Source of the DNA: an uncultured Acidobacteriota bacterium | GTDB taxonomy: Bacteria; Acidobacteriota; Vicinamibacteria; Vicinamibacterales; CAVVIG01 | Direction: 5' to 3' | DNA: 64,000 nucleotides | NCBI GenBank assembly: GCA_963729215.1 | Contig: CAVSND010000030.1 | Coordinates: forward strand, 74,239 to 138,238 | Part shown: positions 3,342-64,000 of the stretch, piece after piece | How positions within the stretch are numbered: position 1 is the first letter of the stretch | How the letters are laid out: the number at the start of each line of letters is the position of its first letter | Position numbers and translations under genes: made by a program | Notes under the pieces: model-generated | What the model was told of the DNA's origin: nothing | The model's database searches: none | The model's input: only the letters and a program-made list of their open reading frames with translations

Positions 3342-3413
3342 CACGAAGACACGAAGATCACGAAGTTACCTGGAACCGCCCCCGCAGACTTCGTGACTTC
3401 GTGATGTCACGTG
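3342..3413. repeat. palindrome built from CACGAAGA(T) tandem units (3 units, 21-nt loop, about 2.5 inverted units)
   Basis: CACGAAGA CACGAAGAT CACGAAGT ..loop.. ACTTCGTG ACTTCGTGATG TCACGTG. It sits between the Vgb-like stop (3417) and the tannase start (3307). The same unit occurs at 44669..44735. Confidence 0.8.
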
Positions 3414-3416
3414 CGA

Positions 3417-4463
3417 TCATTGAGTGAACCTGAGAAACGCGAGCTTGTTGCCGGCCGTAAACCAGAGCTTGTCGATCAATCGGTCCGCCGGACGACGATC
3501 GCTGCCTGCCGTCAGGCCCGTGGGACCTCCCGCCGGTGCCGGCAGGGGGAACTCGGTGATGACACCGTCCGGCGTGACACGGCCAAGCCTGCCGCCTTTC
3601 GTGTACCACACGTTGCGATCGGGGCCCACCGCGATATTGATCGGCGATCCGCCCTGGCTGGGAATCGGAAACTCGGTGATCTTGCCGTCAAGCGTGATGC
3701 GCGCCACGCGATTGCCGTCCACCACGCGGTCGTCCATGCGGCCGTTCAGTTCCACGAACCACATGTGGCCGTCGGCACCGGCGGTGATGTCACCCGGGCC
3801 GCTGTTGGGACGAGGCAGATCGAATTCCGTCACGTGCCCGTCAAGCGTCATGCGGCCGATCTTGCTCGCATGAAATTCCGAAAACCAGATATTGCCATCC
3901 GGTCCGGCTGCGAGCGCGCGCGGGCCGCTGTTGGGTGTCGGGATCGCAAACTCGGTAATCTCGCCGCGGGGCGTGACGCGGCCGATCTTGCCGGCGGCGA
4001 ACTCGCCAAACCAGACGTTGCCGTCGCGGCCCAGGGCCGTGGCGCGCGGCTGGCTGTCCGGTGTCGGAATGTCGAACTCCGTGATGACCCCGGCGGGCGT
4101 GATACGGCCCATCCGATTGCCAAGGTGCTCCGAGAACCAGAAGTTGCCGTCTGACCCGGCCGTAATGATTCGCGGCGCGCTCCCGGGATGCGGCAGCGGA
4201 TACTCGACAAGCCCCGATCCGTCCTGCGCCATGCGGCCGATCCGGTTGCCTGCGCTTTCGGTGAACCACAGCGTGCCGTCCGGCGCGATGGAAATCGTCG
4301 TGGGGCCGCTGCCCGGGTTCGGCAGCGAAAATTCCGTGAACGTCCCGGTCGCCGCCGGCGGATCAACCGCGACAGCCACGAGCTCCACCATGGAGACTAT
4401 CGTCAAGCAGAACAATGCGTTACGGACGATGGCGACGACTGGATCGGACGGGCTGACACGCAT
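3417..4463 (-). CDS. virginiamycin B lyase (Vgb)-like beta-propeller repeat protein with N-terminal anchor/signal
   Basis: Seven repeats of the form TEF.LP.P.SGP..I..G.DG..WF.E....IGR.T..G, characteristic of the Vgb/streptogramin lyase fold. Confidence 0.7.
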   Translation of the reverse strand: MRVSPSDPVVAIVRNALFCLTIVSMVELVAVAVDPPAATGTFTEFSLPNPGSGPTTISIAPDGTLWFTESAGNRIGRMAQDGSGLVEYPLPHPGSAPRIITAGSDGNFWFSEHLGNRMGRITPAGVITEFDIPTPDSQPRATALGRDGNVWFGEFAAGKIGRVTPRGEITEFAIPTPNSGPRALAAGPDGNIWFSEFHASKIGRMTLDGHVTEFDLPRPNSGPGDITAGADGHMWFVELNGRMDDRVVDGNRVARITLDGKITEFPIPSQGGSPINIAVGPDRNVWYTKGGRLGRVTPDGVITEFPLPAPAGGPTGLTAGSDRRPADRLIDKLWFTAGNKLAFLRFTQ

Positions 4464-4479: not shown

Positions 4480-7039
4480 TTGCCCAGCACGAGGGTGAAA
4501 GTCAAGCTGCGTCGGGTGTCGTCGTTCGCGGGCCTCACGTTGGCACTCTGGCTGGGCATCCTCTGGGTTGCCCTGTCGGCCGTGTCAGCGGTATCGGGTT
4601 CGAGTCCTGTACGCGCCGCTCGCGGCGTCCCGGCTCCCCAGGCACCGGTTCCCTCCCACGCGGCGGCTGCTCAGGATATTCCGGCGGACGCCGTCGCCCA
4701 GCGTGCGCTGCTCGACAAATACTGCGTCACCTGTCACAACCCCCGAACGAAATCGGGCGGCCTGGTTCTGGCCAAGGACGCGATTGACGTGGCGCAGCCC
4801 CCGGAACACGCTGAAGTCTGGGAAAAGGTCATCCGGAAGCTGCACGGACGGATGATGCCGCCCCAGGGCATGCCGCGCCCGGACGAGGCGACGCTCGACA
4901 CCTTCGCGACGTCGCTTGAACGGTCCATCGATCGCGTCGCGCTCACCAGGCCCAACCCTGGCCGCTCTCCGCTCCACCGGCTGAACCGTTCCGAATATGC
5001 CGCCGCCGTACGCGACGTGCTCGCGCTCGACGTGGACGCGACGGCGCTCCTGCCGGCCGATGACGAGGCAAACGGGTTCGACAACATCGCCGATGTCCTG
5101 AAGGTCTCGCCGTCGCTGCTCGAGCAATATCTGACCGCCGCGCGCAGGATCAGCGCGCTTGCCGTCGGCGATCCAGGGACGACGCTGGTCGGCACGGTCT
5201 ACCGCGTGCCGCCCGATCGCGCGCAGGAAGATCACATCGAGGGCCTGCCGCTCGGGACACGAGGCGGCATCCTTGTGCGGCACAACTTCCCGCTCGACGC
5301 CACCTACGAATTCAACGTGGTCCTCCTGCAGAACATCGTCGGCTACGTCCCCGGCCTCGAGTGGCCGCACGAGCTGGAGATCAGCATCGACGGCGCACGC
5401 GTCTTCCTGGCCCCCGTCGGCGGCGCCGAAGACAACAAGCTGTCGGACACGAACCTCGCGCAGACGAAGGAGACGCTCGATCGCCGGCTTCGAACGCGTG
5501 TGCCGGTAACCGCCGGGCCACATGCCGTGGGCGTCACGTTTCTCCGGCGGAACTCGGCAGAGTCCGACGAACCGCTGCAGCCGTTCACGCGCAATCTCGA
5601 TCTGCAGGACATGAACGGGTTCCCGACGATCAACTTCGTGCAGATCACCGGGCCCTTCGCCGCAACCGGACCCGGCGACACGCCGAGCCGCCGGAAGATT
5701 TTCGTCTGCCGACCGCCCGACGAACGCGCCGCGGCCGCGCGGACCGGTGGAGACGAGGGGTCCGCGTGCGCGAAGCAAATCCTCTCGACGCTCGCGCGCC
5801 GCGCGTACCGACGGCCTCCGACCGACGCCGAGATCGACAGCCTGCTGGCGTTCTACAACACGGGCCGCCGCCGCGGCTCGTTCGACACCGGAATCCAGGA
5901 ATCGCTGACGCTCCTCCTCGCCAGTCCGACGTTTCTTTTCCGCGCCGAGCCGGATCCTCCGCAGGTTGCCGCGGGCACCATCTATCCGGTCTCGGATTTC
6001 GAGCTGGCGTCGCGCCTGTCGTTCTTCTTGTGGAGCACGATTCCCGACGACGAGCTGTTGAGCGTCGCGGCGCAGGGCAAGCTTCGGGATCCGGGCACGC
6101 TGGAGAAGCAGGTGCGGCGCATGCTCGCCGACCCGCGGTCGAAGGCTCTCGTCGACAACTTCGCCGCGCAGTGGCTGTTCCTGCGGAATCTCCAGAGCTT
6201 TGTCCCCGACAGCGACGAATTTCCCAACTGGGACGACAACCTGCGCCAGGCGATGCGAACGGAAACGAGCCTGTTCTTCGAGAGCATCATGCGCGAGGAC
6301 CGGAACGTCCTCGATCTGCTGACGGCTGATTACACGTTCGTCAACGAGAGGCTGGCACGGCATTACGGCATTCCGAAGGTGTACGGCAGCCAGTTTCGCC
6401 GGGTGACGATCACGGATGAGAACCGGCGCGGGCTGCTCGGGCAGGGTTCGGTGCTCGCCGTGACGTCCTATCCGAATCGGACGTCGCCCGTCCTGCGCGG
6501 CAAGTACATCCTCGAAAATATCCTCGGCACGCCGCCGCCGTCGCCTCCCGCCAACGTGCCGCCGCTCAAGGAAACGGGCGAAGACGGCCAGGCGCTGTCC
6601 CTGAAGGCGCTCATGGAGCAGCACCGATCGAACCCGGCGTGCGCGACCTGCCATCGCGTCATGGATCCGCTGGGCTTCTCGCTCGAGAATTTCGATGCCA
6701 CGGGCAGGTGGCGCCTGAAGGAAGCCGCCGGCGTCGTCGATGCCTCGGGGCAGCTCGCCGACGGCTCGCCGGTGGATGGTCCGGCCGCGCTGCGCAAGGC
6801 CATCTTGAAGCACCCCGAGCAGTTCGTGCGCACGATGACCGAGAAGATGCTGACGTACGCGCTCGGCCGCGGCCTCGAGTACCACGATCTGCCGACGGTC
6901 AGGTCGATCGCGCGTGATGCCGCCTCGCAGAACAACCGCTTCTCGTCACTCGGTACTGGGCATCGTCCGGAGCACGCCATTTCAAATGAAGCTAAAGGCG
7001 CCAGATTCCGTCGTAGCGGCCGGATTCAGCCGGCCGTGA
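4480..7039 (+). pseudogene. PSD1-like heme-binding protein (PSCyt CxxCH + DUF1587/1592/1595/1588/1585), frame broken at about 6952
   Basis: Motifs DKYCVTCHNPRTKSGGLVL, RLSFFLWSTIPDDELL, NFAAQWLFLRNL, TSPVLRGKYILENILGTPPPSPPANVP, ACATCHRVMDPLGFSLENFD. After RFSSL one extra G shifts the frame. The corrected tail VLGIVRSTPFQMKLKAPDSVVAAGFSRP* stops at 7037-7039. The listed ORF to 7344 is wrong-frame read-through. The start is more likely GTG 4495. Confidence 0.85.
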
Positions 7040-7064
7040 ACGTCCGCCTGAAGGCGGACGCTAC
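7013..7064. repeat. REP-like double-hairpin element (reverse orientation copy)
   Basis: GTAGCGGCCGGATTCAGCCGGCCG-TGAAC-GTCCGCCTGAAGGCGGACGCTAC. It overlaps the last codons and stop of the DUF1592 gene. Confidence 0.85.
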
Positions 7065-7076
7065 GAGAGCATTCTT

Positions 7077-8406: not shown

Positions 8407-10008
8407 ATGCGCGCGAAGTGGCTGCTCCACGCGGGGTTCGCACTTGCATTGGCGGTGCGTAGCGTCTGCCTTCAGGCAGACGGACAGGACGTCCGGCTGA
8501 AGCCGGACGCTACGGGTGTTCGTCTGGTGGAGGCCGTAAAAGCTGGCGACAAGGCCGCCATCACGACGCTGCTGAAGCAGAAGTCCGGCATCAATACGCC
8601 CGAACCGGACGGCACGACCGCGCTGCACTGGGCTGTTCGCCAGGACGATCTGGAGCTGACCGATCGCCTGCTGCGCGCCGGCGCTGACGTCAAGGCGGCG
8701 AATCGGTACGGGATCACACCGCTCTATCTGGCCAGCCTCAACGGCAACGCCGCCGTCATCGACAAACTGATCAAAGCCGGCGCAGACGCGAACGCCGCCG
8801 TGACTGAAGGCGAGACGGCGCTGATGACCGCTGCCCGCTCCGGCCACGTCGAGGCCGCCAGGGCACTGATCGCGCACGGGGCCGTGGTCGATGCCCGCGA
8901 GCAGTGGCGCGGCCAGACGGCGCTCATGTGGGCCGCGGCCGAGGGCCACGCGGACATGATCAAGGAGCTCGCCGCCCGCGGCGCAGACGTCAACGCGCGG
9001 TCAACCACGCAGCAGTGGGAACGCCAGGTGACCGCCGAGCCTCGCGAAAAATGGCTGCCGCCGGGCGGACTCACGCCGATGCTCTTCGCGAGCCGACAGG
9101 GATGCGTCGAGTGCGTGCGGGTGCTCGCTTCACTCGGCGCCGACGTGAACGCCACCGACCAGGACGGCATCAGCCCGATGATCTCGGCGATCATCAACGG
9201 GCATTTCGATGTCGCGGGCGCACTGCTCGAAAAGAACGCCGACCCCAACATTGCTGATGCGACGGGCCGGACGCCGCTGTATTCGGCCGTGGACCTGAAC
9301 ACCGTGCCCGACTCGAACCGTCCGGCGCCCCACGTCGTCGACAACCAGATGAGCGCGATGGAGCTGATCGCGTCCCTTCTCGACCACGGCGCGAACCCAA
9401 ACGCGCGGCTGAAGAAACAACAGCCGTACCGGACGAAGGTCGACCGCGGCAGCGACAGCATGCTCGGCGCCGGGACGACCCCGTTCCTGCGGGCGGCCAG
9501 GGCCGGCGACGCGCCGGCCATGCGACTCCTGCTCAAACGGGGCGCGGATCCGAAGATCGCCACGGGCTCTGACGTCCCGGTTGACGTCAGCCAGCCCGCG
9601 CGGCGCGCGCCCGGGGGCATCAACGCCCTGATGGCGGCGGCCGGACTGGGCTCGAAGGAAGAGGATACGGTCGGCCGCAGGAAGACCGAACGTCAGTCGA
9701 TCGAAGCGATCCAGGTATGCCTCGAAGCCGGCGTAGACATCAACGCCGTGGACGGCCGGGGTCAGACCGCCTTGTACGGCGCGGCGCTGCAGGGTTACGA
9801 CGAGGTCGTGAAATTTCTCCTCGCGCACGGCGCGAAACTCGACATCAAGGATCAGCGCGGTTTCACCGCGCTTGACGCCGCCGAAGGAAAGGCCGGCGGG
9901 TTCGGCTTCGGCGGCGGCTCCGCCAATCCGCACCCGGCCACCGCGAAGATCCTCCGGGACTCGATGAGCCCGCCCGCAACTCCGACGTCAACTCAGCAGG
10001 TCCGATAG
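8407..10008 (+). CDS. ankyrin-repeat protein, probably secreted
   Basis: Many G.TALH.A...G...V..LL..GADVNA-type repeats. The N-terminus MRAKWLLHAGFALALAV is signal-like. The start lies 2 nt after the DUF1552 stop. A REP copy lies inside codons 18-36. Confidence 0.85.
   Translation: MRAKWLLHAGFALALAVRSVCLQADGQDVRLKPDATGVRLVEAVKAGDKAAITTLLKQKSGINTPEPDGTTALHWAVRQDDLELTDRLLRAGADVKAANRYGITPLYLASLNGNAAVIDKLIKAGADANAAVTEGETALMTAARSGHVEAARALIAHGAVVDAREQWRGQTALMWAAAEGHADMIKELAARGADVNARSTTQQWERQVTAEPREKWLPPGGLTPMLFASRQGCVECVRVLASLGADVNATDQDGISPMISAIINGHFDVAGALLEKNADPNIADATGRTPLYSAVDLNTVPDSNRPAPHVVDNQMSAMELIASLLDHGANPNARLKKQQPYRTKVDRGSDSMLGAGTTPFLRAARAGDAPAMRLLLKRGADPKIATGSDVPVDVSQPARRAPGGINALMAAAGLGSKEEDTVGRRKTERQSIEAIQVCLEAGVDINAVDGRGQTALYGAALQGYDEVVKFLLAHGAKLDIKDQRGFTALDAAEGKAGGFGFGGGSANPHPATAKILRDSMSPPATPTSTQQVR
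8459..8513. repeat. REP-like double-hairpin element with compensatory stem changes
   Basis: GTAGCGTCTGCCTTCAGGCAGACG-GACAGGAC-GTCCGGCTGAAGCCGGACGCTAC. Both stems differ from the consensus by paired substitutions. Confidence 0.85.
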
Positions 10009-28257: not shown

Positions 28258-28337
28258 CTCGAGTGCAGCGGCAGGGGCGTTAGAGCATATTTCAGACTCG
28301 CGTACCATCTCCGATCGTACCCACGCCGACGCGTCAC

Positions 28338-28775
28338 GTGGTGGTCGGTGGGCCCTGCGTCGGGCACGGTCGTCAGCCCGGAAAAACGACGCGGCGGCAT
28401 CATCGTGTAATGTCATGGCGCTCGGCCCAGGTTTGGGCTCTCGCGGTGGTGGCCGCCGCGTCGTTTTTCGCGTTCGAGACGGGCTGAGACCTATCGCCCG
28501 ACGCAGGGCCCGCCGACCACCGCCTGACGCACACGGGTGCGTGAGACTCCCACGGATTAGCCAGCCCCCGGATCAGGGACGAGGAGTCGCGGTCTCGCAT
28601 CGTGGCTGGGCCAATGATGGAAGGCGGCGTGACCGTCGTCAGACGATAAAACGCCGGGTTTTTCCACGCCGAGCTTCGTATTGGCCAAGCCGCGATGCGG
28701 GACCGCGACGGTGGTTCGACGACTCGCCGTAAAAACGCTATGTCCCCCGCGCTTCGCACTCCGGCGAGCGTCGTC
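28338..28775 (+). ncRNA. candidate structured RNA / palindromic element cluster (unclassified)
   Basis: H1: 28338-28365 pairs with 28496-28523 (28 bp, 2 G-U), 28374-80 with 28480-86, 28381-98 with 28452-69 (18 bp perfect), plus 9 more bp with 3 G-U. H2: 28597-28615 pairs with 28680-28698 and encloses two small hairpins. H3: about 28718-28775. I saw no known RNA-family motif. Confidence 0.3.
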
Positions 28776-30974: not shown

Positions 30975-31070
30975 GGTGTCTGGGTCCTTTCCTTTCAGGA
31001 AATGCGCTTCTGAACCATTAGACGGCGCACCGCCTGTCAGGGACGTGGCTGGGACATTACAAAGAGGAAA

Positions 31071-31135
31071 GGTTCGAGAGGTTCGAGAGGTTCGAGGGGT
31101 TCGAGAGGTTCTAGGGGTTCGAGAGGTTCAGGTGG
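31071..31135. repeat. solitary tandem array of 7 GGTTCGAGA-type units
   Basis: GGTTCGAGA GGTTCGAGA GGTTCGAGGG GTTCGAGAG GTTCTAGGG GTTCGAGAG GTTCAGGTGG. It encodes the last residues (HLNLSNP*) and the stop of the histidine kinase. The unit is the same as at 63166-63752. Confidence 0.85.
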
Positions 31136-32445
31136 ACCGTGAATGTTGAGCCATGGCCGGGCTGGCTGCTGACGCTGACGGTGCCGTGGTGAGCCTCGAC
31201 GATGGCTTTCACGAGGCTGAGGCCGAGGCCGAGGCCGCGTTCGGCACGGCTCCGGTCACCGCGGAACAGGCGATCCCAGATCCGGGGCTGTTCATCGGCG
31301 GGAATGCCGAGACCGGTGTCGCTCACGCGCAGGACGGCGCGGTCGCCGTCCCGGCCGGCGGCGATTTCGACACGCCCGCCCGCGGAGGTGTACTCGATCG
31401 CGTTGTCCAGAAGGTTGGCGGCGACCTGCTCGAGACGCGTGCGATCGACGTTCACGCGCACGTCATCGGCGACGCTCGCGGCGAGCGCCACGCCTTTCGC
31501 GTCGGCGGTGTCGCGATAGAGGTCCGTCGCCCGCGCGACGATGTCCGCCAGCGCGACCGGCTCGCGCTTGAGCGGCATCGTGCCGCTTTCGGCCTCGGTG
31601 ATATCCATCAACGTCGTGAGGATGACGAGCACGCGATCGGCTTCCTCTACGCAGTCGGCCAGCGCTTCGCGGTAGCGGTCGAGGTCGGGCGGGGCGGCCA
31701 GCGCCAGCTCCGCCGATGCGCGGAGGCGGGTCATGGGCGTGCGCAAGTCGTGCGACACGTTGTCGAGCGCGCCGCGCATGCCGTCAACGAGCCCTTCGAT
31801 CTTGTCCAGCATCGCGTTGAAGAGTCCGGACAACTCGTCGATCGCGTCGCGGCGCTCGGCGAGCGGCACGCGGGCGTCGGTCTGGCCCGTCGTGATGATC
31901 CGCTTGACGGCGTCGATGAGCTGGCGGATGGGTTTGAGCGCCGTTTGCGTCGCGAGCGCGCCTCCCGTCAGCGCCACGAGCAGGATCGACAGCGTGACGA
32001 GACCGAGGGCGGCTCGGAACCTGGCGAGCAGGTCATCGCGCGCTTCGGTGCTCTTCCCTACCTGTACGAGCGTGCCGTCGGCCAGCCGTATCGATCCGGT
32101 TTCGAGGGACGCCAGATCCCATCCCTGCGGCTGACTCAGGACAACAGCTTCGGCGCCGCGATCCACCACGCGCACGAACAGCCGTTCGGGAGCGGTTTGC
32201 TGCTCCGCCTGCACCGTCGCGGCGAGGGCGTCGAGTCCGCCGCGATCGTACGCGGTCGCGTAGAGGCCGAGCTTGCTGTCGATCAGCTGGCGATCGCGCT
32301 GAGCGAGGGAGGCCGACGCGAGAAGATACGTCAGCGTCACGATCGCCATCGACCCGGCAACGAACAACGACGCGTACCACACGCCGATGCGCAGCCCGTA
32401 CACGAGCGGACGCGCGTCGCGCTCAGGCCCTGAGGACATATCCAA
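31111..32445 (-). CDS. two-component sensor histidine kinase (2 TM, HAMP, HisKA, HATPase_c)
   Basis: SHDLRTPMTRL H-box, LLDNAIEYT N-box, DTGLGIP, GLGLGLSLV G-boxes. Confidence 0.85.
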   Translation of the reverse strand: MDMSSGPERDARPLVYGLRIGVWYASLFVAGSMAIVTLTYLLASASLAQRDRQLIDSKLGLYATAYDRGGLDALAATVQAEQQTAPERLFVRVVDRGAEAVVLSQPQGWDLASLETGSIRLADGTLVQVGKSTEARDDLLARFRAALGLVTLSILLVALTGGALATQTALKPIRQLIDAVKRIITTGQTDARVPLAERRDAIDELSGLFNAMLDKIEGLVDGMRGALDNVSHDLRTPMTRLRASAELALAAPPDLDRYREALADCVEEADRVLVILTTLMDITEAESGTMPLKREPVALADIVARATDLYRDTADAKGVALAASVADDVRVNVDRTRLEQVAANLLDNAIEYTSAGGRVEIAAGRDGDRAVLRVSDTGLGIPADEQPRIWDRLFRGDRSRAERGLGLGLSLVKAIVEAHHGTVSVSSQPGHGSTFTVHLNLSNP

Positions 32446-33095
32446 CCCCGCGGACGGTGTGAATGAGCTTGGTCTCGAACGGCCGATCGACCTTGTCCCG
32501 CAAGCGGCTGACGAGCACGTCCACGATATTGGTTTGCGGGTCGAAGTTGTACTCCCACACGTGCGACAGGATCATCGTCTTCGAGACGACTTTGCCGGTA
32601 TTGCGCATCAGGTATTCGAGCAGCGCGAACTCGCGCGGGCGCAGATCGACCTGGGTTCCCCCGCGCGACACCCGGCGCGACAGCAGGTCGAGCACGAGAT
32701 CTTCGACCGTGAGCGTCGTGGGTTCCGGCGTGCGGGATGCGCGGCGGACCAGCGCCTGCACGCGCGCCAGCAGTTCCGCGAACGCGAATGGCTTGGTCAG
32801 GTAGTCGTCGCCGCCCGCCTGCAGGCCGCGTACGCGATCGTCCACCGTTTGCCGTGCGCTCAGAATCAACACGGGCGTCATCACGCCTTTCCGCCTCAAC
32901 TCCTCGATGACCGACAGCCCGTCGCGCCTGGGCAGCATGACATCCACGACCGCGACGTCGTAGGCCTGATCGAGCGCCGCCGCCAGCCCCTCGGCGCCGT
33001 CGGACACACGATCGACCGCAAACCCGGCCTCGCGCAGCCCACGCGCCACGAACTCCGCGATCGTGTCGTCGTCTTCGATGAGCAGCGACGTGCAC
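32423..33095 (-). CDS. OmpR-family response regulator (start region frame-ambiguous)
   Basis: LLIEDDDTIAEFVARGL..VDVMLPRRDG..LILSAR..GGDDYLTKPF plus a winged-helix C-domain (LVSRLRDKVD..IHTVRGVGYVL). AGGAGG-11 nt-GTG 33095 is 1 nt out of frame with the body, so one extra nt at about 33088 is implied. Confidence 0.8.
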
Positions 33096-38723: not shown

Positions 38724-38732
38724 TGTTAAACT
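38724..38732 (+). promoter_or_regulatory. extended -10-like TGTTAAACT, 6 nt upstream of GTG 38739 (leaderless-type)
   Basis: gacTGTTAAACTgtttcgGTG, with no SD. Confidence 0.4.
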
Positions 38733-38738
38733 GTTTCG

Positions 38739-39905
38739 GTGAGGCGCTTACAGGGGCTCGCGGCGGCGCTGATCGCAGCTCAGCTGTTATGGGTGGCGGT
38801 CCGCGCACAATCCGAGGCGCCGCGCCCGCCCGAGGCATCGCCTCAGCTCGAGACGCCGCGCCAGCCCGAGGCGCCGCGCCAGCCCGATGCGCCGCGTCCC
38901 TCGTTCGCCGAGTTTCTCGCCGGCGTTCGCGCAGAAGCCCTGATGCGCGGGATTCGCGCGGAGGTCCTCGACGAGGCGCTCGCCCACATCGCCGAGCCGA
39001 GCGCCGTGATCCTGGAACGCGACCGTACGCAGGCCGAAGCCGTCCAGCCGCTCGAGCAGTACCTCGATCAGCATGTGACAAAGAAGACGGTGGCGACCGG
39101 CCGCGAGATGCTCGCTCGCCACCACGATCTGCTGGAGCAGATCGGCACCCGCTACGGCGTCGCCCCGTCGGTCATCGTCGGCATCTGGGGCTTCGAATCG
39201 AATTACGGGCGGTTCAACGGCGTTCGCCCGACGATTACCGCGCTCGCCACGCTCGCCTGGGATCCCCGACGATCCGCGCTGTTTCGGGCGGAACTGTTCG
39301 ACGCACTCGCCATTGTCAACCGCGGCGACATCGAACTGGCCAGGCTGAACGGATCGTGGGCCGGCGCGATGGGCCAGGTCCAGTTCATGCCGTCGAGCTA
39401 CCTGAAGTTCGCCGAGGACTTCGACGGCGATGGACGGCGTGATATCTGGACGACGCCCGCGGACATCTTCGCGTCGATCGCGAACTACATGAAGGGCCAC
39501 GGATGGGTCGACGGCGACACCTGGGGCCGCGAGGTCAGCGTGTCCGCGGATGTGCGGCGGCGGATTTCGGGCGAAGTCGAACAGCGCAACGGTACCTGCC
39601 GCGCGACGCGTGACATGACCACGGTCCTTCCCGTCGCGACGTGGCAGGCGCTCGGCGTCCGCACCGCCGCGGGCGGCTCGCTCGCCCCCGGGGCCCCCGA
39701 TGCCGCGCTGGTGACCGGCCCGACGCGCGCCTTCCTGGTCACCCACAACTACGACGCGCTCCTTGAATACAACTGCTCGCATGCCTATGCCATCGGCGTG
39801 AGCCTGCTGTCCGATCGGATCGCCGGCGCCGATGCGGCGCCGCGGACGGCGAAAGCCAAGGCCGCACAGTCTGCTAAACATAAGCCGAAAAAGGGACAGG
39901 CATGA
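38739..39905 (+). CDS. lytic murein transglycosylase (MltB/SLT_2 family) with N-terminal E-A-P-R-Q-P repeat linker
   Basis: YGVAPSVIVGIWGFESNYGRF, GSWAGAMGQVQFMPSSY..A.DFDGDGRRDIW. Five 18-nt tandem units lie at 38814-38903. Confidence 0.85.
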   Translation: MRRLQGLAAALIAAQLLWVAVRAQSEAPRPPEASPQLETPRQPEAPRQPDAPRPSFAEFLAGVRAEALMRGIRAEVLDEALAHIAEPSAVILERDRTQAEAVQPLEQYLDQHVTKKTVATGREMLARHHDLLEQIGTRYGVAPSVIVGIWGFESNYGRFNGVRPTITALATLAWDPRRSALFRAELFDALAIVNRGDIELARLNGSWAGAMGQVQFMPSSYLKFAEDFDGDGRRDIWTTPADIFASIANYMKGHGWVDGDTWGREVSVSADVRRRISGEVEQRNGTCRATRDMTTVLPVATWQALGVRTAAGGSLAPGAPDAALVTGPTRAFLVTHNYDALLEYNCSHAYAIGVSLLSDRIAGADAAPRTAKAKAAQSAKHKPKKGQA

Positions 39906-42548: not shown

Positions 42549-42594
42549 GTAGCGTCCGCCTTCAGGCGGACGTCCGGCTGAAGCCGGACGCTAC
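42549..42594. repeat. REP-like double-hairpin element (no spacer)
   Basis: GTAGCGTCCGCCTTCAGGCGGAC-GTCCGGCTGAAGCCGGACGCTAC, between convergent genes. Confidence 0.9.
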
Positions 42595-50188: not shown

Positions 50189-50190
50189 CC

Positions 50191-50232
50191 CGTTCCTCGT
50201 TTTCCGTTTTCCGTTCTACGTTCTACGTTCTA
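50191..50232. repeat. six tandem heptamers CGTTYYM
   Basis: CGTTCCT CGTTTTC CGTTTTC CGTTCTA CGTTCTA CGTTCTA, between convergent stops. It encodes the ..RT* end of the minus-strand gene. Confidence 0.85.
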
Positions 50233-51227
50233 GTTCCCAGGACTGGCAGCTTGATCAGCTTCGCCGGATTGTCCTTGAACATCATGTTCAACTCTTTCTC
50301 GGTGAAGCCGGCGCCGCGCAGCGCCTTGGCCGCCAGCGCCAGGGCGTCGGGATGGTTGTTGCCGGGCAAGCCGCTGTCGCTCGAGACAAAGGTCATTGCG
50401 GGTCCCACCTTGCGAATCGCGTCGAAGGCGCGGGCCTGGCCTGCCCCCTCGCGCGAGACCGTTCCCGCGGTGACCTCGATGTAGGCGCCCAGCCTGGTCG
50501 CCTCCTGCATCTGCTCGACGGTCATCGCCCCGCCAAGGCCGAGCAGCGGGTGCGTGACGATCATGCGCTGGACACCCCGCTTCTTGGCTTCGCGCATGAT
50601 CAGGAACGCCTCGTCCGGCGTCACGTGGCCGGTCGCAAGCGTCAGATCGTTCTGAGCGATGACCGAGAGCACTTCGAGCACCTCGGGGAGGAGCTGTCCG
50701 TTGCGCGACACGGCGACGAACGGGCGGTTCTCCTTGCCGGCCTTCACTTCCGGCTCGGAGTCGTGCGTCGGCATCCAGACGATGCGTCCCAGATGGCCGA
50801 CGACGTCGGCCATGTACCGGACCGCCTGCGGATTCATTCCGCCGACCGGGGTGTCGAGCGACACGCCGCCGAACACTTCGAACCCCGGCGTCGCGTACTT
50901 GCGCGCGAGGTACGCGAGTCCGGCCGTCTCGGTCCAGTGATTCTTCAGGAGCACGCCACGCATGCCGCGCTCCTGTGCCAGCTTCGCGACCTCGAAGCCG
51001 TCCCACGAGCGCGGATAGCTGTCCGGATCGCAGTGGGCGTGCAGGTCGATGGCGCCGATCAGTGCGGGGTCGGTCAGATGCTTGTCGACGGAGGGCGGAT
51101 ATTTTCGGTTCTTATACGACTCCCAGGCCGTCTGCGCACGAAGCGTGACGCCAGCCGTCCGCAACCCGACGGCAACAGCCATCACCGATCCGAGCACCAC
51201 CATGAACCGCTTCTGTCCTGCCGTCAT
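50223..51227 (-). CDS. amidohydrolase-fold metal-dependent hydrolase-like protein (secreted; DUF6282-like)
   Basis: Signal/TM MVVLGSVMAVAVGL. IDLHAHCDPD... and VTHP.. are His clusters of TIM-barrel hydrolases. The family name is from memory only. Confidence 0.5.
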   Translation of the reverse strand: MTAGQKRFMVVLGSVMAVAVGLRTAGVTLRAQTAWESYKNRKYPPSVDKHLTDPALIGAIDLHAHCDPDSYPRSWDGFEVAKLAQERGMRGVLLKNHWTETAGLAYLARKYATPGFEVFGGVSLDTPVGGMNPQAVRYMADVVGHLGRIVWMPTHDSEPEVKAGKENRPFVAVSRNGQLLPEVLEVLSVIAQNDLTLATGHVTPDEAFLIMREAKKRGVQRMIVTHPLLGLGGAMTVEQMQEATRLGAYIEVTAGTVSREGAGQARAFDAIRKVGPAMTFVSSDSGLPGNNHPDALALAAKALRGAGFTEKELNMMFKDNPAKLIKLPVLGTRT

Positions 51228-51240
51228 CGATCACCTCGTT

Positions 51241-51390
51241 CCGTGGAGAACGCCGGACCCGTGGAGAACGCAGAGGAGGGTCATAACGCAGAGATCGCAG
51301 AGATCGCCGAGAAGAGTACTTTGGAAAGTCAGTCTTTCTCTGCGATCTCCGCGATCTCTGCGTTTGAGAATGTCTCCGCGTTCTCAAAAG
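51241..51390. repeat. about 150-nt imperfect palindrome built from GCAGAGATC and GGAGAACGC units
   Basis: Inner arms GCAGAGATCGCAGAGATCGCCGAGAAGAG (51288-316) and TCTTTCTCTGCGATCTCCGCGATCTCTGC (51333-61) match at about 25/29. The centre is ACTTTGGAAAGT. Outer arms are TGGAGAACGCCGGAC and GTCTCCGCGTTCTCA. Confidence 0.85.
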
Positions 51391-54300
51391 TCGAATTGCC
51401 CACCGATCTTGAAATACCGCGCCGGCGCAATCCTCGTCGGCGTCAGCCAGGCGCCGCCCGGCACGAACGAATTGTTGAAGGTGATCACTGTATCCGAGTT
51501 CGAGAGGTTGTAGACGTCGGCCGAAATAATCGCCCGCCTCGTCGTCCCGAACCTCAAGACCTTACTCAGGCGAAGATCGAAGTTATTGCGCACGGGCCCA
51601 AATACTGTGCCCGGCTGGATCAGGTTCACCGTGGCATTGGCGCCCCCCGAGAGAGGGCGGCCGAGCGGCTGCGGGCCTGCCGCGATGACCGCATTCGACG
51701 CGACATAGTTGGCGGCAATCTCCGGTCCCGGATTGCTTTGCCACGTCACGCTCGTCTGGATGTCCACCTTGGGGACCAGATACGAGGCGAGCCCGGTCAC
51801 CGACGTGCGGTACGGTTCGACGACACGGCAATAGGGGTTCGTCACGGACGTTAAGAGTCCGCCTGCCGGCACGATGGCCGTGCTTGGCGTGGCCTCCGGC
51901 ATCAGCGCCCGCACCGCGCAGGCGTCCGTCAGCCGACGCCCGGTGCTCGTGCCCCCTTGCACGATAATGCCGTTCTGCAGGCGCGCGTTGACGCTGACAT
52001 CCACTCCCTGCCAGTTCATGGTCTCCTCGCCGACCACGGACCCGAGTTCATGGAGGTTGCTGACCTGACCGACTTTGTTCGGGTTCAGATCATAGAGGCC
52101 GCTGACAACCTGCCCCCCGCCCCCGGGTAACCGCGGATCGAGCGGGGCCCGGACGCTGAACGGCGTGTAGTCGGAGATGAGTGTCGATGTGTTGTCGACA
52201 ATGGACAAGTTGCCCCACGAGTTCCGGTTGTAGCCGACGGTCAACGCCACACGGGGCATGAGCTCCTGCTGCACCGACACCCCCGTCGACCAGACGTAGG
52301 GGCGGTTTCCCCAACCGGTCACCATGTTGGGATCGTAGTTGGTGTTGAAGACCTCGGTCCCGAAGGATTGATTGGCCATGGGCCCGCAATCGCGCTGCGC
52401 CGTGGGGATCGCGAGATTGCAGCCCGGGCTGTTCGTAAAGTTGAAGTTCGTCGGGTTCAGCCACGGCCGTGTCGTCATCGTGGGAATGCGGAAGATCGGG
52501 TTCATGTCCAGCCCGAACAACGAACTGAGACCTTCCACATATTTCCCGGTGTTGAATTTGACAGCCGTCTTGCCGTTCCCGAACAGATCGTAGGCCACGC
52601 CCACTCGGGGCGTGATGTCCTTCCAGGCGATCCCCTGCGTGGACCCCGTGGGAAACGACACTTGCTTCGGCATGAGGATGTAGTCCTGACCACCAATCGG
52701 GTCGGACGTGTAGTTTGTAATGCCGTTGTCCCACCGCAGGCCGCCCTGCAGCGTCAGTCTGTTTCGGGTCCACTGATCCTGCGCGTACAGGTTGATGGGG
52801 ATGACGTGGCGGCCCGTCCGAAGCCAGCCGGGATACGCGAGGTTCTCCGTGATTTGATTCGGCACGCCGTTGTTCGTCCGCACCTGGATGACGGTGCTGT
52901 CGTAGTAGTAGTTCTTCGTGGGCGTGCTGAACCCGCCCTGGTAGCCGAACTTCATATTGTGCGCGCCGCTGACGTAAGAGAGGGACGCTCGCCATTCCTG
53001 CGTCCCGATCTGGCTGGCGCTGAATCCGCCGTTCGCGAGCCCGGGGTGCCGGGAGATCAGGCCCGGGATCGAACAGTTGCAGCTCGGGATGTTGCCCGTT
53101 TGTTCGAGCTGCTGAATCATCAGCGGATTGTTGACGCCGCCGATGCCGCCGGTGCGCGGTCCACCCCCACCGCTCTGGGTGTACGTGCCCTCGTAGGTGC
53201 CGATCCCCGCCTCCGCCAGCAGCCTGGCGTTGATCGGGAACGTCCAGGTGGCCTGCTGGATGCGGGACGGTTTGAAGAGGGTCAAGCCCGTGCCGTCGGG
53301 CGTCTGCGTCGGCGTGCCGCCGCCCTCGGCGCCAATGTAGTTGTACTGTTCCTGCCAGTACAACGTCAGCTTGTTGCGTCGCGTCGCCTGCCACGTCAGA
53401 CGCCCGATGATGTGCTGGTCGAATGAGTCCGTAAACGCCGGCTGCGACAGGTCGAAATCCACCACCCACAGGTTCGGATTGTTGGCGTTCTTGTTGACCC
53501 ACATACCGGGGACCGTGCTGTTCGACCCGACCTGGCGGTAGGTCACGTAGAACCAGAGCTTGTCCCGTTTGATGGGGCCGCCACCCATGGCATCCCAGTC
53601 GTACAGGCTCTTCAGCTTCGACGGCGCCCGCAGGCCCTGGTCCTTGAGCGACTGCGTGTAGTTGTCGCCCTGCATCCCGCCTGTCGCGCCGTTGACGAAG
53701 GCGGATCCTCTGAACGTGTTGCCGCCGTCCTTCGGGGTGATGTTAAGGATCACCCCGGCGCCCTCCGCTTCACCGAGCCCGCCGGACACGTTGATCACCA
53801 CTTCCGACGCGCCGGCCGTGTTCAGGAGCTGACCGCCGGCAATGGCCTGGCCCGTGAAATCCGTGTTCAATCCATCGGTCTTCGTTCGTGAACCATAGGT
53901 GTTCCCGCCGTGGATGGTCCCTGCGAGTCCCCCGATGCCGCCCGCGATGCCACCGGAGTCGCCACCACCCACAGCGACGCCGGCCTGCGACACGTTCAGT
54001 CCGGGAATCAAGGACTGGATCCCGGAGGCATTCCGCGAGCTGGGGATGGCGGCGATCACGTCGCTGCTCACCGTCTGCTGCACGAGCACGCTCTGGACGT
54101 CCACGACCGGTGACTGACTCGTGACGGTGACCGATTCCGTCAGCGCACCAATGCTCAGATCGGCATTCACCGTGGCCACAAACCGGCCCGTGAGCTCGAT
54201 GCCATCGCGCTTCATGGTCTTGAAGCCCGCCATCGAGACCGTCACCGAGTAAGTGCCCGGCCGGAGGTCGACGACGCGGTATTGCCCCGTTCCATCAGTG

Positions 54301-54494
54301 GTGACCGAACGCACCTTCTCAATGAGGACGTCGCTCGCCACTTCCACGGTCACGCCGGGTAACACGGCACCGGACGCGTCCTTGACGAGGCCGGTAATGG
54401 CGGCCTGCGCGAGGGCAGCCGCCGGGAAGAGTAACAACACCGACAGTGCCGCTACCGACCGCCTGACAAAGCGGACCACTCCTGCTCGCTGCAT
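51384..54494 (-). CDS. TonB-dependent receptor with N-terminal CarboxypepD_reg domain (Oar-like)
   Basis: Signal; ITGLVKDASGAVLPGVTVEV..GQYRVVDLRPGTYSVTVSMAGFKT; C-terminal ..YFKIGGQFDF. The ORF is intact at 1036 aa. Confidence 0.9.
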   Translation of the reverse strand: MQRAGVVRFVRRSVAALSVLLLFPAAALAQAAITGLVKDASGAVLPGVTVEVASDVLIEKVRSVTTDGTGQYRVVDLRPGTYSVTVSMAGFKTMKRDGIELTGRFVATVNADLSIGALTESVTVTSQSPVVDVQSVLVQQTVSSDVIAAIPSSRNASGIQSLIPGLNVSQAGVAVGGGDSGGIAGGIGGLAGTIHGGNTYGSRTKTDGLNTDFTGQAIAGGQLLNTAGASEVVINVSGGLGEAEGAGVILNITPKDGGNTFRGSAFVNGATGGMQGDNYTQSLKDQGLRAPSKLKSLYDWDAMGGGPIKRDKLWFYVTYRQVGSNSTVPGMWVNKNANNPNLWVVDFDLSQPAFTDSFDQHIIGRLTWQATRRNKLTLYWQEQYNYIGAEGGGTPTQTPDGTGLTLFKPSRIQQATWTFPINARLLAEAGIGTYEGTYTQSGGGGPRTGGIGGVNNPLMIQQLEQTGNIPSCNCSIPGLISRHPGLANGGFSASQIGTQEWRASLSYVSGAHNMKFGYQGGFSTPTKNYYYDSTVIQVRTNNGVPNQITENLAYPGWLRTGRHVIPINLYAQDQWTRNRLTLQGGLRWDNGITNYTSDPIGGQDYILMPKQVSFPTGSTQGIAWKDITPRVGVAYDLFGNGKTAVKFNTGKYVEGLSSLFGLDMNPIFRIPTMTTRPWLNPTNFNFTNSPGCNLAIPTAQRDCGPMANQSFGTEVFNTNYDPNMVTGWGNRPYVWSTGVSVQQELMPRVALTVGYNRNSWGNLSIVDNTSTLISDYTPFSVRAPLDPRLPGGGGQVVSGLYDLNPNKVGQVSNLHELGSVVGEETMNWQGVDVSVNARLQNGIIVQGGTSTGRRLTDACAVRALMPEATPSTAIVPAGGLLTSVTNPYCRVVEPYRTSVTGLASYLVPKVDIQTSVTWQSNPGPEIAANYVASNAVIAAGPQPLGRPLSGGANATVNLIQPGTVFGPVRNNFDLRLSKVLRFGTTRRAIISADVYNLSNSDTVITFNNSFVPGGAWLTPTRIAPARYFKIGGQFDF

Positions 54495-54587
54495 CTCGCC
54501 CTCCTCTGCTACGTAAAGATGCGGTAAGCCTAGCGACTTGATGTTCGTCCCGCTCTACCTAAATGGAGGTATGAACACGCGCGCCGA

Positions 54588-62523: not shown

Positions 62524-63165
62524 TTGAATCTTCTCGACTTCATTCTCCACAGCGATAAGAAGCTCCTCGAACTCGTCTCCACGTATGGGTCGTGGGTGTA
62601 CGGGATCCTGTTTGCGATCGTCTTCGCTGAAACAGGCTTCGTCGTGACGCCATTCCTGCCGGGCGATTCGCTGCTGTTCGCGACGGGCGCGCTCTGCGCG
62701 CAGGGGAGGCTCAGCACACCCGTGGCGATCGGGTTGCTGATCCTGGCCGCGTTCACGGGCAACGCCGTCAACTACACGATCGGGCGCCTCATCGGGCCGC
62801 GGGTCTTCAAGGCGACGGATCGATCGGGATTCTCCCACCGGCTGATGAACCAGGAACATCTGCAGCGGGCACACGCGTTCTTCGAGGAGTACGGCGGCAA
62901 GGCGATCATCCTGGGACGGTTCGTGCCGATCGTGCGGACGTTCGTGCCGTTCGTGGCCGGCGCGGCGTCGATGCGGTCTCACACGTTCGCGCTGGTCAAC
63001 CTGATCGGCGCGGCCGCCTGGGTCGGCCTCTGCGTCGGGGCGGGCCTGCTGTTCGGCAACATCCCCATCGTCAAGCAGAATTTCTCCCTCGTCACGATCG
63101 GCATCGTCGCCGTCTCCCTGCTGCCGATGGCGATCGAGATCATCAAGAGGCGGCGGCGACGGTAA
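62524..63165 (+). CDS. DedA-family (SNARE-associated) membrane protein
   Basis: FAETGFVVTPFLPGDSLLF..GRF.PIVRTF.PF.AG. Confidence 0.85.
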   Translation: MNLLDFILHSDKKLLELVSTYGSWVYGILFAIVFAETGFVVTPFLPGDSLLFATGALCAQGRLSTPVAIGLLILAAFTGNAVNYTIGRLIGPRVFKATDRSGFSHRLMNQEHLQRAHAFFEEYGGKAIILGRFVPIVRTFVPFVAGAASMRSHTFALVNLIGAAAWVGLCVGAGLLFGNIPIVKQNFSLVTIGIVAVSLLPMAIEIIKRRRRR

Positions 63166-63230
63166 TTCGAGGGTTCGAGAGGTTCGAGGGGTTCGAGAGG
63201 TTCGAGAGGTTCAAGAGGTTCCGGAGATTC
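63166..63230. repeat. left inverted arm of GGTTCGAGA tandem units
   Basis: TTCGAGG GTTCGAGAG GTTCGAGGG GTTCGAGAG GTTCGAGAG GTTCAAGAG GTTCCGGAG ATTC. It starts 1 nt after the dedA stop. Confidence 0.9.
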
Positions 63231-63252
63231 GTCGGAGCGGCGGGCATGCTTT

Positions 63253-63684
63253 GTGCTCCCACGAACCTCCGTGGCTGGCGTGTCGCGCTACGAAGACCTT
63301 GTCGCATGGCACCTTGCGCACGAATTGCAGCGGGAGGTGTTTGCACTGACTGCAACAGGGCCGGCGTCGAGGGATTTCAGATTTCGCGATCAGATTCGCG
63401 ACTCGTCGTCATCCGTCACACGCAACATCGCGGAGGGGTTTGGCCGGTACCGGCCGGGCGAGTTCGCCAGGTTTCTCGACATCGCCAGAGGGTCGCTGAC
63501 CGAAACCCACAACAGCCTGCGCGACGGTCACGACCGTGGTTACTTCACAGCGTTCGACACCGACCGGATGCAACTTCTCGCGGGACGAGCGGCGAAGGCC
63601 ATCACCGGTCTGATCCGCTACCTGCGGACCTGCGCGCGTAAAAATACCGCCGCTCCGTCTCCGCGAATACCGCGAACCTCTTGA
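63253..63684 (+). CDS. four-helix-bundle protein (23S rRNA intervening-sequence protein / S23p family, TIGR02436-like)
   Basis: SRYEDLVAWHLAHELQREVFALT...FRFRDQIRDSSSSVTRNIAEGFGRYRPGEFARFLDIARGSLTETHNSL. The true start is probably GTG 63271 or 63280. The stop TGA lies inside the right arm. Confidence 0.8.
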   Translation: MLPRTSVAGVSRYEDLVAWHLAHELQREVFALTATGPASRDFRFRDQIRDSSSSVTRNIAEGFGRYRPGEFARFLDIARGSLTETHNSLRDGHDRGYFTAFDTDRMQLLAGRAAKAITGLIRYLRTCARKNTAAPSPRIPRTS

Positions 63685-63752
63685 GCCCTGAACCTCTCGA
63701 ACCTCTCGAACCCCTCGAACCTCTCGAACCCCTCGAACCCTCGAACCTCTAG
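63674..63752. repeat. right inverted arm (GAACCTCTC/GAACCCCTC units), reverse complement of 63166-63230
   Basis: GAACCTCTTGAGCCCTGAACCTCTCGAACCTCTCGAACCCCTCGAACCTCTCGAACCCCTCGAACCCTCGAACCTCTAG. It contains the stop codons of the 4HB gene and of cutA. Confidence 0.9.
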
Positions 63753-64000
63753 GTCCCCGTTTCCCGTCGCACCCAATCGAGATACGCGTCGCTCCCGCCT
63801 TCGATCGGCACGATGACGAACTCGGGCAGTTCGTAAGAGTGGAGGGATTTGATCCGCGCCTCGAGGGCGGGCACGCGGTCACGCGTGGTCTTGATGATGA
63901 GCTGTCGTTCGGCTTCGCGCTCGAGCTCGCCCTTCCAGCGATAGATCGACGTCATCGGTCCGTGGATATTCACACAGGCCGCGAGGCGTTCCTCGACCAG
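63749..64000 (-). CDS. cutA: divalent-cation tolerance protein CutA, 5' end outside window
   Basis: ..VNIHGPMTSIYRWKGELEREAERQLIIKTT...YELPEFVIVPIEGGS..YL.WV. The frame is open to the window edge. Confidence 0.8.
   Translation of the reverse strand: MVEERLAACVNIHGPMTSIYRWKGELEREAERQLIIKTTRDRVPALEARIKSLHSYELPEFVIVPIEGGSDAYLDWVRRETGT

Follow-up and report, generated by a model that had tools for sequence, protein, structure and literature searches.

At the convergent junction of dedA and cutA in a 64,000-nucleotide stretch of DNA from an uncultured Acidobacteriota bacterium (contig CAVSND010000030.1; the whole stretch is referred to below as the window), a cassette of ~590 bp encloses a gene for a four-helix-bundle (4HB) protein of the PF05635/TIGR02436 family between long inverted arms, each built of tandem 9-nucleotide (nt) units. 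Our best explanation, to which we give a probability of roughly 0.6, is that this element belongs to a large, cross-phylum class of intervening sequence (IVS)-type cassettes in which the 4HB gene travels with its own arms, that it was inserted, in an ancestor of a Vicinamibacteria-like lineage, into a junction until then without a spacer and has passed down vertically from that point, and that the IVSs of 23S ribosomal RNA (rRNA) that bear an open reading frame (ORF) are members of the same class located in rRNA. IVS elements are already known, as are heptamer arrays; as a widespread class, the cassettes appear to have been undescribed until now, and the literature searched, with subscription journals mostly outside its coverage, held no prior description of a non-rRNA 4HB cassette class with tandem-unit arms.

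The arms are reverse complements of each other, at 85–90% according to an earlier sequence-only reading of the window and at 92% by our measurement over 59 nt (63166-63224 paired with 63687-63745), with a perfect 43-nt core (63171-63213 and 63689-63731). Tandem Repeats Finder assigned a period of 9 to both sides, with 6.3 copies in the left arm and 9.0 in the right, in keeping with the short-unit arrays described in that reading, and the unit pattern GGTTCGAGRGGTTCGAG matches the window 22 times against 0.59 expected. The claim that the loop consists of one 4HB ORF likewise held up against PF05635, TIGR02436 and Protein Data Bank (PDB) entry 2GSC. The TGA of this ORF (63682-63684) falls in the first, degenerate right-arm unit and the TAG of cutA (CTA at 63749-63751) within the last, so that the right arm supplies both stop codons, and the left arm begins at 63166, directly after the TAA of dedA, both as previously read from the letters. 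Arrays often provide the stop codons of their neighbours; besides cutA, this is seen for purH in L165 and L166 (L numbers denote the loci compared) and for the window genes ending at 31111 and 50223.

As RNA, 63150-63770 folds with an energy of −328.8 kcal/mol (z = −12); the arms pair over their whole length, and inward of the repeats a further ~20 nt of stem is formed by non-repeat sequence, 63226-63245 pairing with 63648-63670. Folded alone, the single arms gave z = −0.5 and −1.9, neither significant, which ruled out each arm as an independent structure. A gathering-threshold Rfam search returned zero matches over the whole window, hence no rRNA. The cassette lies between dedA and cutA and not inside a 23S rRNA helix; its terminal inverted repeats nevertheless form a stem around a PF05635 ORF, as in ORF-containing 23S rRNA IVSs. 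Scans of 62900-64000 found no promoter-like site and a single weak internal terminator site (63228-63244) at chance level. No T-run follows the arms, unlike in an intrinsic terminator, whose short GC-rich stem is followed by a U-tract.

The same build recurs across phyla. Scanning genome contigs for homologues returned 80 loci at 30–72% identity from several phyla, including Acidobacteriota, Bacteroidota, Planctomycetota, Cyanobacteria, Chloroflexota, Gemmatimonadota and Verrucomicrobiota. Arms were scored by aligning the upstream flank to the reverse complement of the downstream flank, with 2600 shifted placements of the same geometry in those loci as controls. The sequence-only reading depended on paralogues of the gene being flanked by inverted arrays, and scores exceeded the 99th percentile of controls at 57 of the 80 loci, or 56 of the 73 evaluable ones with enough flank on both sides (several homologue contigs stop at the cassette). 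The arm units are nearly always 7, 8 or 9 nt long (for example GGTTCNN, GGTGCNN, GGTCCNN, GTTGTTC and CAGTCGA), and on the strand reading inward G outnumbers C at 53 of the 57 armed loci. In an unbiased scan of 938 kb for inverted repeats, 47 of 50 pairs with loops of 251–800 nt enclosed a 4HB ORF. The remaining three comprised a GxxExxY (TIGR04256) gene with periodic arms, a small GIY-YIG-like ORF, so called from its own sequence, to which a group I intron endonuclease model gave only a weak hit below threshold, and one unidentified pair. The GIY-YIG-like ORF (L074, 6650-7339; ~117 amino acids (aa)) sits in a 500-nt loop between 93-nt inverted arms that are not periodic.

By sequence similarity, arms and 4HB gene travel together. 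Across 26 cassettes from Acidobacteriota, the more alike the proteins are in identity, the more alike are the arms in 6-mers (Spearman 0.37, permutation p 0.0005), a correlation that host relatedness confounds. The nearest paralogues (71–78% identity) lie at a convergent wzy/purH junction and have GGTTCTAGA arm units, and homologues of 69–74% identity have GGTCCACGG units.

In the Xanthomonadales Xanthomonas, Pseudoxanthomonas and Dyella (L168-L176), a 4HB gene of the type of XCC0516, the family's structural prototype, separates accB from accC. Its left arm, (GGGAATC)x4, follows the accB stop and contains the gene's own GTG start, and its right arm, (CCCATTC)x4, ends exactly at the accC ATG. 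A published catalogue counts 186 arrays of the GGGAATC heptamer in X. campestris, of which 70 are in convergent inverted pairs (Rehm et al. 2015; PMC4692102); the arrays mostly have four units, lie at an average of 28 nt past the upstream ORF and were studied as G-quadruplex formers. Repeat #15 of the catalogue's supplementary table is the left XCC0516 array, overlapping the gene start, listed with neither a link to the gene nor a partner array (PMC4692102). Dyella also has a CGATTCC array next to groES (L175, 4064-4093), a placement that the published table gives for X. campestris as well.

The dedA/cutA junction exists in both filled and empty form among relatives, the comparison that the earlier reading had proposed. 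Two orthologous loci, with 4HB proteins of 97% (L081) and 81% (L083) identity, keep the order dedA, 4HB gene, convergent cutA, with arms of the window unit type; the orthologues at this site thus carry the arms and not the gene alone. In a third (L082, 85%), the flanks are as in the window and the cassette interior is inverted: blastn aligns the flanks on the minus strand and the interior (63188-63738) on the plus strand, with both breakpoints within the arms. Homologous recombination between the 60–80-nt inverted arms explains this inversion, and since the structure is symmetric, the G-rich arm still lies upstream of the 4HB gene afterwards. No recombinase gene accompanies the inverted repeats in the window or in L081-L083, as it would in a site-specific invertible switch. 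Inversion between arms is not unique to this site; at the wzy/purH-side junction (L084 compared with the contig of P0013; L165; L166), paralogous cassettes occur in both orientations.

A DedA scan of metagenome contigs returned 80 relatives, whose dedA–cutA spacers we compared. Neither tblastn nor the family hidden Markov model (HMM) detected a 4HB gene in any of the 80, and the cassette is limited to a clade with at least 91% DedA identity. In many relatives the two genes abut or overlap (spacer −35 to +4 nt; L098, L088, L117, L111, L107, L129, L109, L162, L157 and L143 have at most 4 nt between the genes or overlapping stops). Elsewhere the junction holds ORF-less arrays or hairpins with units unlike those of the cassette (L085, L164, L145, L140, L122 and L087), such as GGTCCANNN units in L085, a 154-nt palindrome of GAATCCC-type units in L164 and TGGCTGA x7 in L145, or GC-rich REP-like (repetitive extragenic palindromic) hairpins and unrelated small ORFs. 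The 199-nt spacer of L086 and the 300–700-nt spacers of L090, L094, L127 and L134 contain other ORFs and, by tblastn and HMM, no 4HB remnant. The simplest reading of these sequences is that the empty junction would be ancestral and repeatedly struck by small insertions, the cassette among them.

Several other features of these spacers were seen along the way. L103 and L146 share a different minus-strand small ORF (MSERHGIRGDG..., 67–111 aa, no NCBIfam match), with GGTTC/GGTCC-type tandem units upstream of it but not downstream. The GC-rich hairpins, with the motif GTCCGCC-TGAAG-GCGGAC or CCGGC-TGAAG-CCGG, form doublets in the window (42549-42594; 7012-7065 with 8458-8514), and fill the dedA–cutA spacers of L104, L112, L139, L141 and L144. 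Tandem GGTCCAGGGTCCAGGGTCCA units have been absorbed into the 3′ end of dedA in L109, and ATCAGCC repeats encode the C-terminus of cutA in L157.

The enclosed protein is a clear family member, with 88.9 bits to PF05635 (cut-off 33.8; E 3e-25), 82.3 bits to TIGR02436 (cut-off 24; E 3e-23) and a match to XCC0516 (PDB 2GSC) at E 1e-10 from the single sequence and 1e-29 with a profile. The longest ORF runs from 63253, but translation more likely starts at a GTG at 63280 that is kept in three orthologues and gives 134 aa. The window protein has the GxxRxxxSxxxNxxE motif described for PF05635/TIGR02436 proteins (PMC3936711) as QIRDSSSSVTRNIAEGFG; in the 4HB alignment S45, E52 and G53 are invariant, with R40 and N49 nearly so. 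The structures 2GSC and 2RLD have 5 chains each and thus represent homopentamers. Searches with the protein in PADLOC and PHROGs gave no match, and no further 4HB copy was found in the window. Between orthologous cassettes dN/dS is 0.12–0.21 at dS 0.36–0.75, a ratio that places the protein under purifying selection, so that it must be functional. Decaying copies occur beside conserved ones: in L033, L036, L044, L065 and L071 the 4HB gene is broken by a frameshift or stop and the arms are still present. PF05635 genes have also been noted within cas operons (PMC3936711).

The cassette is older than the divergence of the orthologues, yet its arms are still 92% complementary with the 43-nt core intact, and they must therefore be homogenised or under selection. 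The complementarity, which from the sequences is far above neutral-decay expectation, would reflect slippage with inter-arm conversion, or selection.

The comparisons above establish the build of the cassette and its spread across phyla, its insertion at this junction, the inversion between the arms, purifying selection on the protein and active upkeep of arm complementarity; the mechanism that follows is proposed. Read-through from dedA, and on the opposite strand from cutA, would transcribe the cassette, because it has no promoter- or terminator-like signal and both neighbours run into the arms. Either transcript would fold into a ~75-bp duplex enclosing the ORF. By analogy with the rRNA-borne members, for which cleavage has been demonstrated, RNase III would cut this duplex, releasing 4HB mRNA and ending or insulating the convergent dedA and cutA transcripts, and such release would explain why cassettes are tolerated in rRNA, cas operons and accBC. 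Arm length would shift by slippage, with likeness kept by inter-arm conversion or template switching, and those arrays and hairpins of like build that lie at the 3′ ends of genes and lack an ORF would be derivatives of, or partners to, 4HB cassettes. The 4HB pentamer, with a nucleic-acid-binding fold like that of Avd, the accessory protein of diversity-generating retroelements (DGRs), would most likely act on its own repeats; repeat binding is the most attractive hypothesis because the fold is pentameric and Avd-like, each arm has four to nine units and ORF-less arrays of the same unit co-occur.

Several observations weigh against this explanation. The cassette has no detectable transposase, recombinase or clear target-site duplication; its junctions read GGTAA/TTCGAG... 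and ...GAACCT/CTAGG without a clear direct repeat, and the empty sites are only ~80% identical, so that the target is not reconstructable from them. Nothing at the locus points to recent transposition; the nearest empty sites are found at only ~80% DedA identity. Order-level conservation of cassette and arm sequence in the accBC operon looks more like that of a fixed functional element than of a selfish insert. Seventeen evaluable loci fell below the arm threshold, although one of them, L027, proved to be armed in the later unbiased scan. Arm length changes fast: the upstream arm has ~6 units in the window and L081 and ~2.5 in L082 and L083, from which it follows that the cassette can do without a long perfect stem. 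Mismatches compatible with G-U pairing showed no excess for the sense over the antisense transcript (86 versus 88), for which reason we do not claim RNA-level selection; there is no pointer to selection on a sense-RNA hairpin, and maintenance at the DNA level is equally compatible. Finally, read-through and RNase III cleavage are themselves inferred from the sequence.

A possible though tentative alternative, which overlaps our best explanation, is that the arrays would be a repeat family with a cognate protein, as in REPIN-RAYT systems: the 4HB pentamer would act in trans to bind, maintain or spread the arrays and hairpins dispersed at the 3′ ends of genes, and its own gene, with those units on either side, would be an autoregulated master copy. 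Like RAYT genes, the 4HB gene is vertically inherited and under purifying selection. Its product is homopentameric. ORF-less hairpins or arrays of a cassette's own unit are found within cassette loci (L005, 8027-8182; L006, 693-864; L027, 2840-3002 and 5658-5855) and at 31070 in the window, and outside the cassettes arm 9-mers occur at 2.6 per kb in their own locus against 0.55 per kb across loci, a roughly fivefold enrichment. In X. campestris, XCC0516 is bracketed by the very GGGAATC unit that makes up the 186 arrays and their 70 convergent pairs. Against this alternative stand the lack of any known nuclease or recombinase activity of the 4HB fold and the units of the ORF-less window hairpins, which are not those of the cassette. 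Carried across phyla, it would amount to a partnership in which each 4HB pentamer recognises its own 7–9-nt unit as RNA or single-stranded DNA and maintains, spreads or regulates through ORF-less arrays, an idea for which we see a minority chance. The same guarded odds apply to its inclusion of the Xanthomonas GGGAATC and cyanobacterial STRR repeats, with 23S IVSs as master copies landed in rRNA helices. A parallel version may hold for GxxExxY (PD-(D/E)XK) genes with CRCNNATT-type units.

The ORF-less elements of the window bear on several of these points. The sequence-only reading had listed a solitary array of the cassette unit at 31071, which we recovered as a GGTTCGAGR array, and palindromes of the cassette's build at 3342, 44669 and 51241; these last are real and stable hairpins (z = −4 to −10, 10–25 nt after stop codons), whereas their units, CACGAAGAT and CGCAGAGAT among them, differ from that of the cassette. 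A heptamer array at 50190-50236 was absent from that list. At four of the compared loci, GxxExxY genes (TIGR04256, PD-(D/E)XK-like) lie between inverted 8-nt tandem arms (L052, 5371-5938; L039, 2238-2702; L063, 5304-5980; L058, 1749-2249) with units GGATTACACGGATT, CACAAATTACACAAATT and ACGAATTACGCGAATT, which are unlike the 4HB type and resemble the window hairpin units CACGAAGAT and CGCAGAGAT. From these four loci only, the ORF-less window hairpins may belong to a GxxExxY-type rather than a 4HB-type family. Two further repeats were noted in the window: a nested hairpin at 28331-28530 (35-nt arms, 91% complementary, 130 nt between; inner perfect 18-nt arms 28381-28398 and 28452-28469), non-periodic and with no Rfam match, and an 18-nt tandem repeat CCGAGGCGCCGCGCCAGC at 38812-38896 (4.7 copies), apparently coding, in the plus-strand gene 38730-39905.

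Table 1. Cassette, flanking genes and ORF-less repeat elements of the window.
Feature	Coordinates	Strand	Remarks
dedA (left flank gene)	62524-63165	+	NF008102 DedA E 1.5e-70, PF09335; TAA stop 63163-63165, left arm directly after
Left arm	63166-63231	+	~6.3 tandem 9-nt GGTTCGAGR units; inward-reading strand G-rich; pairs with right arm in fold
Inner non-repeat stem, left side	63226-63245	+	Pairs with 63648-63670 (fold); conserved in orthologue L081 (arm alignment)
4HB gene	63280-63684	+	PF05635/TIGR02436; TGA stop within first right-arm unit
Inner non-repeat stem, right side	63648-63672	+	Codes for the protein's C-terminal tail; fold and arm alignment
Right arm	63673-63752	+	~9 tandem CGAACCYCT units (complement of left-arm units); holds ORF TGA and cutA stop
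cutA (right flank gene, convergent, cut by window end)	63749-64000	-	PF03091 E 3.9e-32; complete gene in L081
Solitary GGTTCGAGR array, 6.7 copies	31070-31129	+	Overlaps stop of minus-strand gene 31111-32571; no inverted partner within 700 nt
ORF-less hairpin, CACGAAGA(T) stem units, ~22-nt loop	3341-3407		10 nt 3′ of stop of minus-strand gene 3417-4463
ORF-less hairpin, CACGAAGAT units, 23-nt arms 91%, 25-nt loop	44666-44736		~23 nt 3′ of a plus-strand gene's stop
ORF-less hairpin, CGCAGAGAT units, core 51285-51364, 29-nt arms 93%, plus outer stem	51256-51381		Just 3′ of stop of minus-strand gene 51384-54554
Solitary heptamer array (CGTTTTC/CGTTCTA)	50190-50236		Fills convergent junction; gives TAG of minus-strand gene 50223-51230

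The position of the window hairpins just after stop codons, together with the ORF-less arrays that occupy the dedA/cutA junction in six relatives and the location of rRNA IVSs in hairpin loops of 23S helices (PMC4990558), would fit arms that are a host 3′-end hairpin or terminator-like repeat, with a 4HB gene that landed in, or was captured by, a pre-existing loop. We regard this as unlikely: a 4HB ORF lies inside 47 of the 50 inverted repeats with long loops, a very strong association, cassettes at different loci have unit types that track the phylogeny of the protein, the junction arrays of relatives differ in unit from the cassette, and no U-tract follows any of the stems.

A DGR remnant or component, with the 4HB gene as Avd, is very improbable and was rejected. 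PF05635 proteins are related to Avd, a homologous pentameric four-helix bundle (PMC10053308), so the literature upholds the fold kinship asserted in the sequence-only reading, but a profile of the window 4HB clade failed to reach the Avd structures. Neither the window nor L081 has a reverse transcriptase or a template/variable repeat (TR/VR) pair around the cassette, the arms being the only repeat pair found; the upstream window neighbours are a Cys/Met-metabolism enzyme and dedA, and the 2.7 kb downstream in L081 hold cutA, DivIC, glyoxalase and DLH genes, to which the empty PADLOC and PHROGs searches may be added. Chance resemblance or an assembly artefact, conceivable because tandem repeats are prone to mis-assembly and several homologue contigs end at the cassette, has a negligible share given the fold at z = −12, the 22 unit matches against 0.59 expected, the cassette's presence in three independent metagenome assemblies (L081-L083) and dozens of independent genomes with this build, finished Xanthomonas chromosomes included.

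If the IVS-type cassette is a real unit, it would join three puzzles: the 23S IVSs, the function of the PF05635 family and the heptamer-type repeats. ORF-bearing 23S rRNA IVSs have been known since the early 1990s, and PF05635/TIGR02436 is, to our knowledge, a very large gene family that has no assigned function despite solved structures. In 2024 the IVS origin and its protein, and the PF05635 domain functionally, were still called uncharacterised (PMC11270868). Xanthomonas and cyanobacteria are rich in heptamer-type tandem repeats and inverted pairs, and the loci compared here show the same abundance in Acidobacteriota, Bacteroidota, Planctomycetota, Chloroflexota and others. The rRNA IVSs would then be a special case of a general class of insertions that can reside in transcribed sites, the essential accBC operon among them, and the protein would gain a candidate ligand in its own repeat. 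X. campestris XCC0516 offers a tractable model, with a crystal structure, a published repeat catalogue and genetics. For annotation, arms matter in that they break assemblies and give neighbouring genes their stop and start codons.

Among known systems, MITEs (miniature transposable elements with inverted repeats) of the Correia/NEMIS type are small intergenic inverted-repeat insertions that are co-transcribed and whose stem is cut by RNase III; MITEs are conserved over their full length and have target-site duplications, whereas copies of the 4HB cassette share only the unit type, and no clear duplication was seen in the window. Eukaryotic foldback elements have long inverted terminal arms of short tandem repeats, variable in length from copy to copy, around a loop that may hold an ORF; the likeness is a structural analogy only, across domains of life and with no proteins in common. 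DGR avd genes come with a reverse transcriptase and a TR/VR pair, unlike the window cassette, which has neither nearby, and we know of no description of bracketing tandem arms as a feature of avd.

In REPIN-RAYT systems, inverted REP sequences flank a gene and REP doublets are dispersed elsewhere, and the RAYTs are HUH Y1 transposases. The window cassette resembles these systems in having a vertically inherited gene between inverted repeats, and may resemble them in ORF-less hairpins of its repeat near gene 3′ ends; it differs in that the enclosed gene is a PF05635 four-helix bundle and not an HUH Y1 protein, and that the arms are tandem arrays and not a single palindromic REP. Dispersal of the cassette unit is seen as one solitary array in the window and as ORF-less hairpins near the cassettes of L005, L006 and L027, all of these being contigs and not whole genomes. 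The Xanthomonas GGGAATC and Nostoc GGGGAYT heptamers (PMC4692102) and the cyanobacterial STRR repeats are likewise intergenic tandem units of ~7 nt, and GGGAATC arrays share with the window arms frequent convergent inverted pairing with the G-rich strand inward. The published arrays were described as G-quadruplex repeats, unlinked to an enclosed 4HB gene or to IVSs, and their heptamers have GGG runs where the 9-nt window units have GG runs.

The ORF-bearing 23S IVSs share with the window cassette a PF05635-family ORF in the loop, a terminal inverted-repeat stem and a length of ~430–590 nt. That of Coxiella burnetii has a 28-bp terminal stem, within which RNase III cuts in vitro, and an S23p ORF, with three to four tandem GACAGAT heptamers, their number variable by strain, 5′ of the ORF (PMC4990558); IVSs are also known from Leptospira, Brucella and Xanthomonas (cited in PMC4990558). 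The window cassette differs in lying between convergent stops of protein genes and not in rRNA, in arms that are longer (65–80 nt) and almost wholly tandem, and in that RNase III excision is demonstrated for the rRNA IVS and only predicted here. With the Coxiella build matched, 56 of the 73 evaluable loci armed and filled and empty sites both found, the stem-plus-ORF topology of an IVS at an ordinary intergenic site, proposed in the sequence-only reading as a self-contained element, holds for the cassette as far as sequence can show.

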